A stretch of 64,000 nucleotides of DNA from a virus (IMGVR_UViG_3300045412_000547), one strand, 5' to 3'; positions 1 to 25,804 are shown, numbered from the stretch's first letter. Notes: a model not told the origin generated them from the sequence alone. Numbers and translations are program-made.

Positions 1-1
1 G

Positions 2-667
2 AGACCTTCTGTTTTTATGCGATTATCTATGTGTAATCTTACATGTAGAGGGTTTGCATCATCAGATTCACCTCATGGTTGCGATAGCTTTATTAGCTGG
101 TCTGTAAAAAATCGTATGACTTTTGATGAAATTTTTGATTACATGTCACAAAATAGTTATAACTGTAATTTAAAAGACGGTGCTATATGGAAGATAACTG
201 GGGGTGAACCTCTTATTCAACAAAAAAATCTATTAGGATTAGTACAAGCCTTTAAAGATCGATATGGCTTTACACCTCATATCGACTTTGAAACAAATGC
301 TACTATTATGCCCGATTCAGAATGGAAAGATAAATGGGGTGCAACGTTTACAACATCTCCAAAGCTTTCTAACAACGGTGATCCTGTAGAGAAACGCTAT
401 AAGCCTGAAGTATTAAAATGGCATGCTAAAAATAATTCTGGTTTTAAATTTGTAGTTAGCGGTGAAGATGAAGTAAAAGAAATATTAGAAAAATACGTAT
501 ATGAGTGTATTGTACCGGTAAATCGAATATGGCTTATGCCTTGTTGTGGAAGCCGCGAAGAACATACACAACAAAGTTCGATTGTTGCAGATTTATGTAA
601 GAAATATAATTTTAAGTTTAGTCCGAGGTTGCAGTTAGTTATTTGGAATAAAGCACTTAAGGTTTAA
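2..667 (+). CDS. queE: 7-carboxy-7-deazaguanine synthase (radical SAM), 5'-truncated by window edge
   Basis: Frame open from position 2 (RPSVFMRLSMCNLTC...GCDS); ITGGEPL, FETNAT, TTSPKLSN, FKFVV, FSPRLQLVIW are QueE motifs. Confidence 0.9.
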   Translation, partial: RPSVFMRLSMCNLTCRGFASSDSPHGCDSFISWSVKNRMTFDEIFDYMSQNSYNCNLKDGAIWKITGGEPLIQQKNLLGLVQAFKDRYGFTPHIDFETNATIMPDSEWKDKWGATFTTSPKLSNNGDPVEKRYKPEVLKWHAKNNSGFKFVVSGEDEVKEILEKYVYECIVPVNRIWLMPCCGSREEHTQQSSIVADLCKKYNFKFSPRLQLVIWNKALKV

Positions 668-20404: not shown

Positions 20405-21913
20405 ATGGCACAAATTCGTCCTTCACAGGCGTACATCGATGAGAATCGCGCAAAGGTATTGCTCGAAAAGTGGAGCCCAGTATTGGATTACACTTCCGAC
20501 AATGTCCGCGCAATCGAAGATGATCACACCCGCTTAAACACCGCTATTCTTTTGGAAAACCAAGAGAAGTGGTGCTTTGAAGCTTACGGTACAAATAGTG
20601 GTAACATTGCTGGTGGTACGACAAGTGTTTTCGGTTCCGTCAATGCTGGCGGTACCGGTGGCGCTTTTCCCCCGAACAGTGACTCCTATGCCCCGGGTGA
20701 TGCTCGCCTTCCTAAGATTCTTATTCCGATGATTCGTCGTACGTTCCCGGAATTGATCACTAACGAAATCGTTGGTGTTCAGCCGATGAGCGGCCCTGTT
20801 GGATTAGCTTTTGCCCTCAGATACAGATATGACGGTGATGCACTCGGTGCTACTAACGGTAAAGGTCTTGACGGCTCATTAGCCTCAGGCACTACCGTGT
20901 GGCCGGGCGCTTCAGCCGGCGGTTCTGATGGAGCTGAATTAGGTTATCAGTACCTCGATACGAGATTTACTGGTACATCTTCTTCTGCTTTGGTTGGTGA
21001 TTCAACTTTCTTCCCCTTCGTCCCTCAGGACCAAGGTGTTGCTCAGTTGCTCGCTAACTTTGAGTTAACCTCTAAGATTCCCCAGATTGTAGTTAGCTTC
21101 GAAAAGACAGCTGTTGAAGCTGGAACTCGTAGGCTCGCTGCTCGCTGGTCAGTTGAACTCGAGCAAGACTTGAAGAACATGAACGGTATTGATATCGACA
21201 CGGAACTCACTAACGCAATGTCGTATGAGTTACAGGCCGAAATCGACCGTGAAATGATAATCAGAATGATCCAGACTGCACTCAATGCCGGTTTCGGCAC
21301 TGGGTTCTCGGTATGGTCACCCGCTTCGGCGGATGGTCGTTGGCTCGTAGAGCGCAACCGCGATTTCTATCAGAGGTTAATCATCGAGGCTAACAGAATC
21401 GCTGTCCGTAACCGCCGTGGCGCGGCTAACTTCGTCGTTGCAACACCTCGTGTGTGTGCAATCCTCGAAATGTTACCCGAGTTCCAGTGGGCACCGGTAC
21501 AGGGAAATGTTAACACACAGCCCGTTGGTGTAGCAAAGGTTGGTTCACTTGGTGGCCGTTTCAACGTTTACCGTGATACGAGAACAGAAGCCCAATTCCA
21601 AGCCTACCCCGGAGGTAACTTCGGTGGTATCGGTGCTGGCGCCGCTGGTGGCACACGCTCCCAGCCGGTTGAATACGCGCTTCTCGGTTATAAGGGTCCG
21701 GAGTTTTATGACACCGGTATCATTTATTGCCCGTACATCCCGGTAATGGTGCAGCGCACAATTGGCCCGAACGACTTCTCTCCGAGAGTCGGGTTGCTTA
21801 CTCGCTATGGCGTTGTAGACAACATCTTCGGTGCTAACTTGTACTATCACGTAATTATCTTACGTGGTTTAGGCACTGCATTTACACCTGGAACACAATC
21901 CGTGTACTTCTAA
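20405..21913 (+). CDS. gp23: Major capsid protein
   Basis: LLEKWSPVL, LLENQ, GVQPMSGPVGL, WSVELEQDL, EIDRE, YCPYIP, TRYG; AAGGAG SD upstream. Confidence 0.97.
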   Translation: MAQIRPSQAYIDENRAKVLLEKWSPVLDYTSDNVRAIEDDHTRLNTAILLENQEKWCFEAYGTNSGNIAGGTTSVFGSVNAGGTGGAFPPNSDSYAPGDARLPKILIPMIRRTFPELITNEIVGVQPMSGPVGLAFALRYRYDGDALGATNGKGLDGSLASGTTVWPGASAGGSDGAELGYQYLDTRFTGTSSSALVGDSTFFPFVPQDQGVAQLLANFELTSKIPQIVVSFEKTAVEAGTRRLAARWSVELEQDLKNMNGIDIDTELTNAMSYELQAEIDREMIIRMIQTALNAGFGTGFSVWSPASADGRWLVERNRDFYQRLIIEANRIAVRNRRGAANFVVATPRVCAILEMLPEFQWAPVQGNVNTQPVGVAKVGSLGGRFNVYRDTRTEAQFQAYPGGNFGGIGAGAAGGTRSQPVEYALLGYKGPEFYDTGIIYCPYIPVMVQRTIGPNDFSPRVGLLTRYGVVDNIFGANLYYHVIILRGLGTAFTPGTQSVYF

Positions 21914-21972: not shown

Positions 21973-22006
21973 AAAAAGAGGGATCTTGCGGTCTCTCTTT
22001 TTTTTT
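21973..22006 (+). terminator. Rho-independent terminator after the capsid gene
   Basis: AAGAGGGATC-TTGC-GGTCTCTCTT stem (with G.U pairs) followed by a T run. Confidence 0.8.
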
Positions 22007-22405: not shown

Positions 22406-23320
22406 TTACTGCCTGACAGTTTTCGTAAAGTACTTAAACTTATCAACTAGGTTTCTATCTAATAAATCATAACTGCTTGCGCGAGTTGGATTAATATCAA
22501 TACCGCCACGCCGGACATATAAACACGATACAACTAACTCTTCAGGGTTAAATTTATCATAAAAACGTTTATAAATTGTCTCACAAATCTCTTCATGAAA
22601 ATGACATTCATCTCGGAATGATATAATATATTGCAGTAATGAAACTTTATTAATTTCATACCTACCTTTGTAATGTATGTAAACATCGCCCCAATCTGGC
22701 TGAGATGTTACTCTGCAGTTACTTTTTAATAAAGCAGAATGAAATCTTTGGGTCCTAGATTCTGGTATTTCAATAGCATTTAAAAGATTAGGATTCTCAC
22801 TATAAGATAATGCTTGTATCATCGTTACATCAATTTCTAATTCTAAATTAGGATATTCACTATTGGGAAATACTGGAGGATAATAAGCACCATCATCAAT
22901 AGATGTAGTAGATCTTACATATACAAGGACATCTGTTTTTAATAGTAAAGAAAGATCTATACTAATTTTATCTTGTAATTGATTCAATACACTTATAATA
23001 TTACCTTTAAATTTTTCCATGTTAAATGAGTTAAGATACAATTTGATCGATTTAGATTCTACGATGTACTCACTATTACAGGGATAAACAATTTTTGCTA
23101 TTGCTGCTATTGGCATGCCTTCTGCTGTTAAACAAGATACTTCATATGCATTCCAAATATCATATCCTTTAAAAGGTAAATTGTCGTCCTTTATGCCTAA
23201 ATGTTTTCTATTATTTTGTCTTGGTTCAGGTACTAATAAAGACGGGTCATATGTACATTTGTAACCAGTAATCTTGCCTAAATGCTTTGAAATATTACTA
23301 TTATCGAGTTGTGTGTTCAT
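22406..23320 (-). CDS. queF: NADPH-dependent preQ0 reductase (two-domain type)
   Basis: DIWNAYEVS, ESKSIKLYLNSF QueF motif, SNCRVTSQPDWG catalytic Cys, FHE, RRGGIDINP. Confidence 0.93.
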   Translation of the reverse strand: MNTQLDNSNISKHLGKITGYKCTYDPSLLVPEPRQNNRKHLGIKDDNLPFKGYDIWNAYEVSCLTAEGMPIAAIAKIVYPCNSEYIVESKSIKLYLNSFNMEKFKGNIISVLNQLQDKISIDLSLLLKTDVLVYVRSTTSIDDGAYYPPVFPNSEYPNLELEIDVTMIQALSYSENPNLLNAIEIPESRTQRFHSALLKSNCRVTSQPDWGDVYIHYKGRYEINKVSLLQYIISFRDECHFHEEICETIYKRFYDKFNPEELVVSCLYVRRGGIDINPTRASSYDLLDRNLVDKFKYFTKTVRQ

Positions 23321-23888
23321 TTATTATTAATTTAATTTGATTCATCCTTTCTTCAATTGTTCCTTTTAGTCTATATACCCTATCTTTCCATTGCGATTGC
23401 TTTATATAGTGTTCGAACTTTTCTATCATTATATTTCTAAAATTCTGATCTACACTTCTTTCACCGTCATCAATCAGTATTACATCAGTAGGGTCAGGAT
23501 ATAAAATAATATCGTATTTAGTATGATATCTAAGCCAATACCACATAGACTGCATCCATACATTATCACTAACTAGTTTTTTATCGTGAAAATAATCTGT
23601 ATATAAAAACCCATCCATAAGACACCTATCATGAACTGCATTTTTACATGATGACAATATATCAGCTCTAAATAAATTTTCTAGTTCTTTATTAATAATT
23701 AACAGTTGAGTAATGTCATTAGCACCTTCTTCGTTTATACTAACATTAAATTCTCTTTTAACTAACCGAGTAACTTCATCAATATAAAAAAACCTATCTC
23801 CAAGCCATTTAATACTCTCTTCTTCTTTCATTTTCTTTAGCAAAGTAGTTTTACCTGAACAATGCGGGCCCGTAAACGTTATATTCAC
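23301..23888 (-). CDS. P-loop nucleotide kinase (AAA_28 / dNMP-kinase-like)
   Basis: GPHCSGKTT; HDRCLMDGFLYT; DDGERS. Confidence 0.8.
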   Translation of the reverse strand: MNITFTGPHCSGKTTLLKKMKEEESIKWLGDRFFYIDEVTRLVKREFNVSINEEGANDITQLLIINKELENLFRADILSSCKNAVHDRCLMDGFLYTDYFHDKKLVSDNVWMQSMWYWLRYHTKYDIILYPDPTDVILIDDGERSVDQNFRNIMIEKFEHYIKQSQWKDRVYRLKGTIEERMNQIKLIINEHTTR

Positions 23889-24044
23889 TAACTATATCTT
23901 AACGGAATAATTTTTTAATACAAGCTTTTAATTTCTTAAAAATAGTTATTGTGGCATTGTCAGCTATTTCTTGTAATTTAAAATATCCCTTTAGTAGATG
24001 ATTATCATCATCAACCCAAACATACTTCGGGCGCTCTTTTTTCT

Positions 24045-24392
24045 TCATTTACACCATTTTCTTCTTTTTACTATTTCGGCAATAATACAATATACCGAAG
24101 TATCACTAAAAGCATCGAATACAGGCTCATTTGCTGTATCAAAAGTTTTTTTACGTAGCACAAGATTAATTAATCTTTGAATCTTATCATTCAACCGTAC
24201 AACAATAGCAGAAACTGATGCTGTTATATCTTCTTGTTTAAATAAATCGGAACCTAGGCTAATATTATGTGGTCCGTAGTCAAATTGTTTTTTACAAAAC
24301 GTCTCATAATGTTCAGATTGTATTTTTTTAAATTCACTACATGTTTCAGGATATGTAGTTTCTACATATTGAATAATTTCTTGAGAGGTCAT
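24045..24392 (-). CDS. Nucleotide-modification-associated domain 1 (DUF1599/Nmad1)-like protein
   Basis: KKQFDYG, VRLNDKIQRLINL, NEPVFDAFSDTSVYCII. Confidence 0.7.
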   Translation of the reverse strand: MTSQEIIQYVETTYPETCSEFKKIQSEHYETFCKKQFDYGPHNISLGSDLFKQEDITASVSAIVVRLNDKIQRLINLVLRKKTFDTANEPVFDAFSDTSVYCIIAEIVKRRKWCK

Positions 24393-24961
24393 TTCTCTAA
24401 TATCTTACATCCTTTTAAAAAACTTATCCATAAATCTAGCGCCACTTTTCTTAATTTAGTATAGACATCGTCTAAAGATAATCCATCAATTTGCTCTCCT
24501 TGACTCATCAAAATTTCACCTTCATCTACACCCGGTGTGACACGATGTATGACACAACCAGCCAATTTATATCCTTCACGGAAAGCCCTCTCTTGCGGAT
24601 TAAATCCTTTCATAGAAGGAAACTTATCAATAAGGCCGGGATGCAAATTATATATCTCATACTTTTCACAAATCTGCTTTGGTATAATTCTTAAGTAGCC
24701 GTGTAAAGTCACAATCGGATTACTATATACACTCAAAACATTTTCATAATTTTCAATAGTCGGTTTATTCGGTATCATATACCAGGTATGTGGCTTATTT
24801 AATTTAGTAGCACGAAACTTAGTTAGTTCGATTAATTTTTGATTTATCCCGTCCTTGGTATGTCTATTGGTAACTATACTGTCAGGATACACACCAAGTG
24901 CATTACTTAAGTCGTAAATTTCAGTTCCTGTTTGTGAAAAAAATGTAACCCAGGGTCTCAT
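24389..24961 (-). CDS. dpdN: PurN-like formyltransferase, probable preQ1 formyltransferase
   Basis: FFSQTGT, LHGYLRII, NLHPGL, GCVIHRVTPGVDEGEIL; lies between a TGT-like gene and queF. Confidence 0.7.
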   Translation of the reverse strand: MRPWVTFFSQTGTEIYDLSNALGVYPDSIVTNRHTKDGINQKLIELTKFRATKLNKPHTWYMIPNKPTIENYENVLSVYSNPIVTLHGYLRIIPKQICEKYEIYNLHPGLIDKFPSMKGFNPQERAFREGYKLAGCVIHRVTPGVDEGEILMSQGEQIDGLSLDDVYTKLRKVALDLWISFLKGCKILEK

Positions 24962-25770
24962 CTACGAATAATTTTTTTAAACATATTTACGTTATAATTT
25001 AAAATATTCAATTGCGTAGGTGTAAGCTCGTGGTCAATTAAATCAGCTAACTTTGTTGTTGGTTTTGTGGGTATACCATAATCAGCATCATATTTTAAGC
25101 CGTGTATAGCGGCGACAACCGGGTTACTTGTATCACAACTTACAATATTATAAATATTTTTATCAACATAAAATCTAAATTCTTTTGCTAACGAACAACC
25201 AAGTAAATGGTGTGGTTTATTCCAATTCCATAAACCACAATCAATTAGCTGTGATATAAACCGCTTTCTTCCTGAACAAAACTTTTCTAATTTTGAATGA
25301 CCTTCACCGGTTACTTGATAATAACTTAAATCAAAGCTAATCGCAATCATATCTGTTTCATTAGACATAAATTCATAACAATCTTTCAAGTCTTGCCAAT
25401 TTTTACCTTGTATAGCACCAATAGCTCGAGAAAAGAAAGAACTTTTTAATGCTCCGGCCTGATCTCTAAAATTTATATAACTATCAATCGTAGCATCTGA
25501 ATCTTCTAAAACATCTGGTACAATAAACATATTTGGCTGTATGTCTAGTGCTGCTTGAAAAAATTTATCCCTATTAAAAGCAGTACCGAGTTCAAATATA
25601 GAGTTATCTAATAGAACTTCTCGGTTATGTATATTCCGTGCTGTTTTAAAATAATTGTAATAATTAGATTTTGTCTCAAATAAATGAACTAATGCGTAGT
25701 CAAAATCATTATATGTCTGTGAATAATCTATAATAGATATGGGAGATTCGTGAGATACTTTTATTAGCAT
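24958..25770 (-). CDS. dpdA: TGT-like TIM-barrel guanine transglycosylase (DpdA family, possibly DpdA3-like)
   Basis: TGT-order motifs LLDNSIFELG, VPD, GAIQG, IAISF, HHLLG, SCDTSNP; first gene of the queF operon. Confidence 0.7.
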   Translation of the reverse strand: MLIKVSHESPISIIDYSQTYNDFDYALVHLFETKSNYYNYFKTARNIHNREVLLDNSIFELGTAFNRDKFFQAALDIQPNMFIVPDVLEDSDATIDSYINFRDQAGALKSSFFSRAIGAIQGKNWQDLKDCYEFMSNETDMIAISFDLSYYQVTGEGHSKLEKFCSGRKRFISQLIDCGLWNWNKPHHLLGCSLAKEFRFYVDKNIYNIVSCDTSNPVVAAIHGLKYDADYGIPTKPTTKLADLIDHELTPTQLNILNYNVNMFKKIIRR

Positions 25771-25804
25771 CCTAATATTATATAAGTAAATACTCGTATA
25801 TCAA
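25771..25804 (-). promoter_or_regulatory. Sigma70-like promoter of the deazaguanine operon (leaderless geometry)
   Basis: Minus strand TTGATA-N16-TATAAT-N6-ATG. Confidence 0.7.

Follow-up and report, generated by a model that had tools for sequence, protein, structure and literature searches.

Flavobacterium phage immuto_2-6A carries 7-(formylamino)methyl-7-deazaguanine (fdPreQ1) in place of deoxyguanosine (dG) in its DNA, and it is the only phage in which fdPreQ1 has been measured (Hutinet 2023, PMC10516641). That work is the reference study for the chemistry of immuto_2-6A and for the DpdA3 subfamily of transglycosylases, whose founders are the DpdA of immuto_2-6A, gp056 of Campylobacter phage CP220 (a Firehammervirus, with dADG) and CGPG_00065 of Cellulophaga phage phiST (with dDG). 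Complete replacement of guanine (G) was reported for CP220 and phiST as well, and DpdA3 phages differ in this from the tRNA-guanine transglycosylases (TGTs) and other DpdA enzymes, which lead to partial and often sequence-specific modification (PMC10516641). In both CP220 and phiST the DpdA3 homologue stands beside a P-loop kinase, with a nucleotide hydrolase close by; neither phage has QueF or DpdN, and their pathways end at ADG and DG, respectively. Post-replicative insertion of the modified base was proposed for all DpdA families (PMC10516641).

Here we describe a related operon in IMGVR_UViG_3300045412_000547, the DNA of a T4-like, AT-rich (about 31% G+C) phage that is known from sequence alone, as metagenome contigs. 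The whole stretch of 64,000 nucleotides (nt) is called the window, and coordinates are counted from its first letter. No DNA-level match to the window was found among cultured phages, and apart from the operon the phage is unrelated to immuto_2-6A at the DNA level. An earlier note on this DNA had proposed a five-gene deazaguanine operon for the replacement of G by formyl-preQ1 before replication. From the homologies given below, the operon appears to be an enlarged and diverged new member of the DpdA3/DpdN fdPreQ1 system described in 2023. As to the step at which guanine is exchanged, we infer that free nucleotides before replication are to be preferred over the published exchange on finished DNA, a choice on which our confidence is evenly divided.

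Results

Orthology to the fdPreQ1 genes of immuto_2-6A

The operon (22406-25770, minus strand) comprises six co-oriented open reading frames (ORFs), flanked by the gene of the major capsid protein Gp23 (20405-21913) and a gp5-like baseplate gene (Table 1). The genes for DpdA3, DpdN, a P-loop kinase (K1) and QueF follow one another in the same order as in immuto_2-6A, and their products are 42%, 48%, 28% and 47% identical, respectively, to those of that phage. FolE, QueD and QueE are also phage-encoded in both. Because DpdA3, DpdN and QueF are orthologous to the proteins of a phage with measured fdPreQ1, it is very probable that the module specifies formylated preQ1 in DNA, and in this central claim the earlier note is borne out. 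Unlike immuto_2-6A, the window phage has a DUF1599-like gene and a small ORF of 49 amino acids (aa) in the operon, a GMP reductase gene 3 kb away and a second kinase; immuto_2-6A, unlike the window, has upstream genes for a PRA-PH-type pyrophosphohydrolase and a phosphoribosyltransferase (Pribosyltran). The comparative set consisted of 58 related IMG/VR loci with 38-87% DpdA3 identity, and since the same gene order recurs in them the arrangement is not due to chance.

Table 1. Position and basis of assignment of the genes and the promoter-like site; positions refer to the window unless a contig is named.
Feature	Position	Strand	Basis
Putative promoter, TTGATA-16-TATAAT	25777..25804	-	Sigma-70-like, 11 of 12 consensus matches
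DpdA3-type guanine/7-deazaguanine transglycosylase (predicted), 270 aa	24958..25770	-	Homology and fold model
DpdN-type formyltransferase (predicted), 190 aa	24389..24961	-	Formyl_trans_N (PF00551), E 5.5e-16, 59 bits (cut-off 26)
DUF1599/Nmad1-like protein (predicted), 115 aa	24045..24392	-	Orthologue matches to PF07659, Atlas neighbours
Small ORF, 49 aa	23899..24048	-	Read from the sequence; start codon overlaps the DUF1599-like stop codon (ATGA)
AAA_28 P-loop kinase K1, 195 aa	23301..23888	-	AAA_28, E 7.5e-13; phrog_2107
Two-domain QueF (predicted preQ0 to preQ1 nitrile reductase), 304 aa	22406..23320	-	Domains and motifs
QueE (7-carboxy-7-deazaguanine synthase), 3' part	1..667	+	phrog_2076, E 8.5e-33; truncated by the window edge
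Second AAA_28 kinase K2, 251 aa	1393..2148	+	AAA_28, E 5.6e-8; adjoins QueE
GMP reductase (predicted, GuaC type 2), 319 aa	28773..29732	-	Putative accessory guanine-pool enzyme, 3 kb from the operon
PF18909 genes of relatives	L031:11586-11951, L043:11801-12175, L044:5861-6235		Same interval as the DUF1599-like gene of the window

The earlier note had set the PurN-like protein beside DpdN, and besides the Formyl_trans_N domain its 47.8% identity to DpdN of immuto_2-6A supports an assignment to DpdN. When 20 DpdN sequences were aligned with E. coli PurN, the PurN residues N106, H108 and D144 were invariant. The features by which PurN handles glycinamide ribonucleotide (GAR) are not kept: in the GAR phosphate loop a nearly invariant Glu stands where PurN has N13, and nothing aligned with PurN K170. 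The score against the PurN equivalog TIGR00639 (56 bits) is below the cut-off of 150. The formyltransferase of the operon is thus predicted not to be PurN. QueF contains both the QueF_N (PF14819, E 2.2e-35, 122 bits) and the QueF domain (PF14489, E 4.2e-22, 79 bits), and the ESKSIKLY motif, the catalytic Cys in SNC and the HFHEE motif are all present, in agreement with the queF gene proposed earlier; its score against TIGR03138 (264 bits) is slightly under the cut-off of 293.

The queE gene, placed by the earlier note at the window start, is indeed there in its 3' part. Logan contigs that match the window at 100% identity over 9.4-12.1 kb reach about 17.4 kb before the window start; one of them (L075) contains the full QueE of 247 aa (L075:8532-9275), and full-length QueE, PhoH, QueD and FolE all lie within 4 kb of the window start. 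Two of the three preQ0 genes that had been suggested for a search elsewhere in the genome, folE and queD, are therefore located just upstream, while the third, queC, is taken up in the Discussion.

A quite different reading takes them for auxiliary metabolic genes of the ordinary kind, with the TGT-like enzyme acting on tRNA (queuosine precursors) and the PurN-like enzyme on GAR in purine synthesis, since the TGT fold and the Formyl_trans_N domain are common to such enzymes. This reading has hardly any probability and was rejected. Orthologues of the proteins occur in a phage with measured fdPreQ1 DNA, the transglycosylase has 270 aa and no zinc subdomain (see below), there are no tRNA genes in the window, the PurN score and the changes at N13 and K170 speak against use of GAR, and the 58 loci show the genes in a fixed operon with QueF.

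DpdA3 is predicted to be a bare TGT barrel

Over 94-98% of its length DpdA3 is 42% identical to both the annotated DpdA of immuto_2-6A and gp056 of CP220, and the profile of the family matches CGPG_00065 of phiST with an hhalign probability of 97.7% (E 2e-12). There was no Pfam match at E 0.01 and none in NCBIfam, a PDB profile search remained without any match, and hhalign against a single E. coli Tgt sequence was not significant. The relation to TGTs was settled by fold search only. The AlphaFold2 model is a TGT-type (beta/alpha)8 barrel (pLDDT 91.7, pTM 0.88), and the top 50 Foldseek matches were all TGTs (E about 1e-8). With VIA-align the best matches were the archaeosine TGT 1iq8 (Z 18.2) and the DNA preQ0 insertase DpdA 7ui4 (Z 17.6), followed by the bacterial TGT 3unt (Z 16.1) and QTRT2 (Z 15.9), while generic barrels reached 15.4 or less. 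These results uphold the TGT-like gene of the earlier note.

The barrel is shared with TGTs (Z 16-18) and with the DNA preQ0 insertases of the bacterial DpdA/DpdB/DpdC system and of the phage DpdA1/DpdA2 type. In contrast to those enzymes, which have 370-580 aa, DpdA3 has only about 270 and lacks the zinc-binding Cys residues, any Pfam TGT/DpdA match and any PDB sequence match. The family alignment contains no invariant Cys, and the chain stops directly behind the barrel; with this and its length of 270 aa, DpdA3 lacks the zinc subdomain. It was therefore rejected as a canonical TGT or bacterial DpdA, having neither that subdomain nor a match to the family models, and the model suggests a minimal, bare TGT barrel. 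The invariant motifs LLDNS, PD, VQGK, KPHHLLG and CDTSNP resemble the catalytic and base-reading residues of TGTs. D55 (in LLDNS) and D213 (in CDTSNP) are invariant in 33 sequences and lie at strand ends; they and the base-reading Gln may be the counterparts of the two catalytic Asp residues and the Gln of TGT/DpdA, conserved at motif level, a mapping drawn from motif likeness and the non-significant hhalign alignment.

DpdA3-like proteins are abundant, with 4,408 clusters in the protein database. There are natural DpdA3::QueF fusions of 531-568 aa (P0122-P0126 set), and one DpdA3 gene of the same set carries an intein/LAGLIDADG insertion. No DpdA3-kinase fusion was found among the long DpdA3 fusions, the size range of about 460 aa being covered only by the best 120 of the 4,408 clusters.

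These observations bear on the published model, according to which the phage replicates with dGTP and DpdA3 then exchanges every G in the finished duplex for preQ1 or formyl-preQ1, the kinase, phosphoribosyltransferase and GMP reductase only recycling or rebalancing the released guanine (to GTP for FolE, or to IMP). We consider this model possible, though doubtful. That a solved DNA insertase is the second-best fold match agrees with it, and the DpdA3::QueF fusions link DpdA3 to the free-base donor only. The absence of the zinc subdomain that is found in the tRNA- and DNA-acting relatives points the other way.

A P-loop kinase is strictly linked to DpdA3

K1 matches AAA_28 over the full length of the model (positions 2-164 of 164; 49.4 bits, cut-off 27), and the motifs GxxxxGKT (Walker A), DRC and DDGxRS are fully or almost fully conserved. 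A search of 50,697 phage records found K1 homologues in 18 only, all of which also carry DpdA3. In the related loci K1 follows DpdA3 in 54 of 58, and of the four exceptions three are cut contigs; L059, with 38% DpdA3 identity, has no recognisable kinase beside DpdA3. Taking all phages together, a P-loop kinase adjoins DpdA3 in six lineages, that is the window clade, immuto_2-6A, CP220, phiST, Chryseobacterium phage MA9V-3 and the contig L087. In phiST and MA9V-3 this kinase belongs to AAA_18, not AAA_28. In L087 it is fused to FolE2 (502 aa, L087:2947-4455) within the order QueD-QueE-DpdA3-kinase::FolE2, and this was the only product of a search for long kinase fusions.

PHROGs and GenBank label such proteins as thymidylate kinase (Tmk). 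We rejected this label for K1, since at E 0.01 no NCBIfam family was matched, including no curated Tmk model. In the PDB the profile gave weak matches to solved Tmk, deoxynucleoside kinase, NadR and deoxyguanosine kinase structures (E 2e-5 to 7e-3), none of which was favoured.

Four related long contigs keep the second kinase, K2, at 56-63% identity. Its homologues in the phage collection were confined to 15 records from Campylobacter phages of the CP220 type. In CP220 itself the homologue is gp006, which lies beside a dUTPase; CP220 thus shares K2 with the window phage. About 6 kb before the window start the same genome carries a cytidylyltransferase-like gene (CTP_transf_like, L075:2122-2787). 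This gene and K2 recall the two halves of NadR (NMN adenylyltransferase and ribosylnicotinamide kinase), and K2 might serve in NAD salvage instead.

The published model accounts less easily for a recycling kinase with so strict a linkage, because every host already has Gmk and Ndk. The kinase::FolE2 fusion in L087 supports that model. The word "kinase" is absent from the main text of PMC10516641. Our literature searches found no paper that mentions a DpdA3-linked kinase and no DpdA3 work later than 2023.

Operon genes that may lower the guanine pool

The third gene of the operon was called DUF1599/Nmad1 in the earlier note. The window copy itself misses PF07659 (no match at E below 1), and 16 of 23 orthologues match it weakly, at best with E 1.8e-4, which is under the level of a confident call. 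Among the 30 nearest named Atlas clusters, 28 carry DUF1599 (PF07659), in 28-46% of their members. The model has four helices (pLDDT 86). The protein is thus probably a divergent DUF1599/Nmad1 protein, the earlier name standing through its orthologues and neighbours and not through the window copy. The gene is present in 38 of the 58 related loci. A literature search yielded no useful information about DUF1599 or Nmad1. Microcystis phage Mel-JY01 and the crAss-like phage cr108_1 have homologues of the DUF1599-like gene only a few kb from GMP-reductase-like genes.

Three relatives (L031, L043 and L044), all without the DUF1599-like gene, have in its place between DpdN and the kinase a PF18909 dATP/dGTP diphosphohydrolase (E about 1e-20; Table 1), and among five long contigs PF18909 occurs only in the one that lacks the DUF1599 gene. 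We take PF18909 to be the MazZ type of Z-genome phages. A nucleotide hydrolase also stands beside the cluster in the founding phages, of the PRA-PH family in immuto_2-6A, MazG-like in phiST and with an HD domain in CP220. The GMP reductase of the window matches NF003966 with E 5.7e-100, its 334.8 bits narrowly missing the cut-off of 344, and PF00478 with 165 bits; nine related loci have it within the operon, placed between DpdN and the DUF1599-like gene. The published model needs G-containing replication, which would be starved by a dGTP diphosphohydrolase and a GMP reductase encoded in the operon.

A phosphoribosyltransferase gene is found near the cluster in 15 related loci, with a homologue also in L048, and the published model gains from it; in the window and 17 kb upstream no homologue was found. 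The same gene raises the possibility of ribonucleotide salvage. By this route the phosphoribosyltransferase would join deazaguanine to phosphoribosyl pyrophosphate, a kinase would make the diphosphate and the phage ribonucleotide reductase the deoxy form, with DpdA3 only clearing residual guanine in DNA or pool. The GMP reductase homologue might then act on the deazaguanine nucleotide, like ToyE of toyocamycin synthesis, reportedly described by McCarty and Bandarian in 2008. The Pribosyltran protein of immuto_2-6A with its homologues, the NrdA and NrdB genes 5-8 kb from the operon and the GMP reductase inside the operon in nine loci all suit this route. It is nevertheless quite unlikely, given that no phosphoribosyltransferase homologue was found in the window or the 17 kb before it and that the strictly linked pair consists of DpdA3 and the kinase, not of the phosphoribosyltransferase. 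Moreover, the measured product of immuto_2-6A keeps its 2-amino group, so that a ToyE-like deamination is not indicated there, and that phage has no GMP reductase.

The remaining genes of the operon vary among the 58 loci. QueF is present in 47 and DpdN in 43, and shorter variants consist of DpdA3-kinase-QueF or of DpdA3-kinase alone. Where the DUF1599-like gene is missing, further variants have an insert that codes for an inorganic pyrophosphatase, a HIT protein, a cupin, or a tryptophan-halogenase-like or ornithine-cyclodeaminase-like enzyme. The halogenase-like flavin enzyme (PF04820, E 2e-75) lies between DpdA3 and DpdN in L006 (L006:10810-12393) and could lead to a further, possibly halogenated, deazaguanine derivative. 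The ornithine-cyclodeaminase-like gene of L045 and the cupin genes of L033 and L034 are at similar positions.

Promoter, small ORF and neighbouring genes

The earlier note had put five genes behind one promoter. All five were found on the minus strand, behind a promoter-like site with 11 of 12 consensus matches; a sixth ORF, of 49 aa (24048-23899), had been overlooked, and in this respect the five-gene description was incomplete. The small ORF has a counterpart in this position in its six closest relatives (L003-L006, L018 and L027) and only in these, and it is a gene call on three metagenome contigs.

The -10 hexamer (25777-25782) stops 6 nt ahead of the ATG of DpdA3 (25768-25770), and no Shine-Dalgarno sequence is visible before this first ATG on the minus strand. 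If the site is used, the operon mRNA would therefore be leaderless or nearly so. Most of 15 aligned relatives, down to about 50% protein identity, also have the TTGA block, the -10 block and, within the spacer, a TATTTAC block. A weaker promoter-like site with 9 of 12 matches lies ahead of the kinase gene (23918-23891) and may be an additional promoter. Facing the end of the operon, directly after the major capsid gene, there is a terminator-like hairpin on the plus strand (21973-22002; 13 pairs, then a T run).

Between 4643 and 11095 on the plus strand runs a series of sugar-modifying genes (Glyco_transf_11, epimerases, Methyltransf_23, Glyco_transf_10, a GDP-mannose-dehydratase-like gene and DUF366, from precomputed Pfam matches on the identical contig L074). 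The series resembles a pathway for glycans of the fucose type.

Discussion

The results can be arranged into the following pathway. FolE, QueD and QueE, together with QueC, would convert GTP into preQ0, which QueF would reduce to preQ1, and DpdN would formylate the aminomethyl group, before or after the exchange. DpdA3 would act on free deoxyguanosine, as nucleotide or nucleoside, and put the deazaguanine in place of its guanine. The exchange product would be phosphorylated towards the triphosphate by K1, possibly together with K2, and incorporated by the phage polymerase. The competing guanine pool would be lowered by the DUF1599-like protein here, by the MazZ-type dGTP diphosphohydrolase in relatives and by the GMP reductase. 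On this account DpdA3 is not a DNA transglycosylase; it would be the first TGT-fold enzyme to exchange guanine on free deoxyguanosine nucleotides or nucleosides, in company with one or more kinases and a dGTP-clearing enzyme, a proposal that could as easily prove wrong as right.

Several lines of evidence favour exchange on the nucleotide pool. It is favoured because DpdA3 has a dedicated and strictly linked kinase, which among the phage records occurs nowhere else, and because the genome has a second kinase of this type. It is also favoured because enzymes in the operon that deplete dGTP or GMP would starve a route which first builds G-containing DNA, and because some relatives have added pyrophosphatase and HIT genes. 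The stripping of DpdA3 to the barrel and the completeness of replacement in all three DpdA3 phages tested argue in the same direction. In addition, DpdA3 did not modify DNA in E. coli in the hands of the authors who described it, and the ADG nucleoside was reported in the cytoplasm of CP220-infected cells (PMC10516641); both observations favour the pool route. The former, that DpdA3 alone left E. coli DNA unmodified, also counts against exchange on finished DNA.

There is a likeness of mechanism, not of membership, to the hydroxymethyl-dC pathway of T4 (gp42, the gp1 kinase and the gp56 dCTPase) and to that of the S-2L Z-genome (PurZ, MazZ and DatZ). Each of these combines an enzyme dedicated to modifying a nucleotide with a kinase of its own and a hydrolase by which the canonical deoxynucleoside triphosphate is cleared. 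The best-studied complete base replacements in phages, hydroxymethylcytosine in T4 and Z in S-2L, are pre-replicative, a further point that the post-replicative model has against it. The system described here would differ from both in that the modifying step is a glycosidic base exchange by a TGT-fold enzyme. To our knowledge, such an exchange on free nucleotides is unprecedented.

A number of points weigh against the pool route. The closest solved folds to DpdA3 are those of enzymes acting on polynucleotides, the TGTs and the DNA preQ0 insertase DpdA, and the only publication on DpdA3 proposes post-replicative insertion (PMC10516641). The nucleotide-level exchange inferred by the earlier note stands in part: kinase linkage in six lineages, the MazZ-type gene in three relatives and the GMP reductase in nine are set against these folds and that publication. 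The kinase::FolE2 fusion, in one lineage, fits recycling of released guanine to GTP and suits exchange at the DNA level too; the phosphoribosyltransferases near many clusters likewise fit a guanine-recycling loop, which would serve either model. With its mixed and weak matches to solved kinases, K1 most resembles, by its AAA_28 domain, the NadR-type nucleoside kinases. The earlier note had made it an activator of the modified deoxynucleoside monophosphate; a P-loop kinase as constant partner of DpdA3 was found, and a monophosphate kinase was not established.

The removal of dGTP by the Nmad1-like protein, also proposed in the earlier note, is suggested by the position of its gene. With hhalign the protein gave a probability below 1% against MazZ-type, PRA-PH and MazG proteins of related clusters, so that no sequence similarity to MazG-type enzymes was found. 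A PDB profile search, Foldseek and VIA-align returned generic helical matches only (Z 7.6 or less), and no likeness of fold to those enzymes emerged either. The gene is absent from 20 of the 58 related loci. Finally, QueC was not found in 81 kb of the genome (the window plus 17.4 kb upstream); it is present in four of five related long contigs, as is FolE.

As the 4,408 clusters indicate, uncultured T4-like phages from aquatic sources very commonly carry the DpdA3 system, and the value of the present locus lies in comparative evidence on how DpdA3 phages reach complete guanine replacement. If guanine is exchanged at the nucleotide level, this would be a new type of reaction for the TGT fold, and the failure of DpdA3 alone in E. 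coli would be explained. A minimal set of DpdA3, kinase, dGTP hydrolase and preQ1 genes would then be defined for making fully 7-deazaguanine-substituted DNA in vivo, with uses in restriction-resistant DNA and phage engineering. It would also mean that the published post-replicative model is overturned for all phages with complete deazaguanine replacement.

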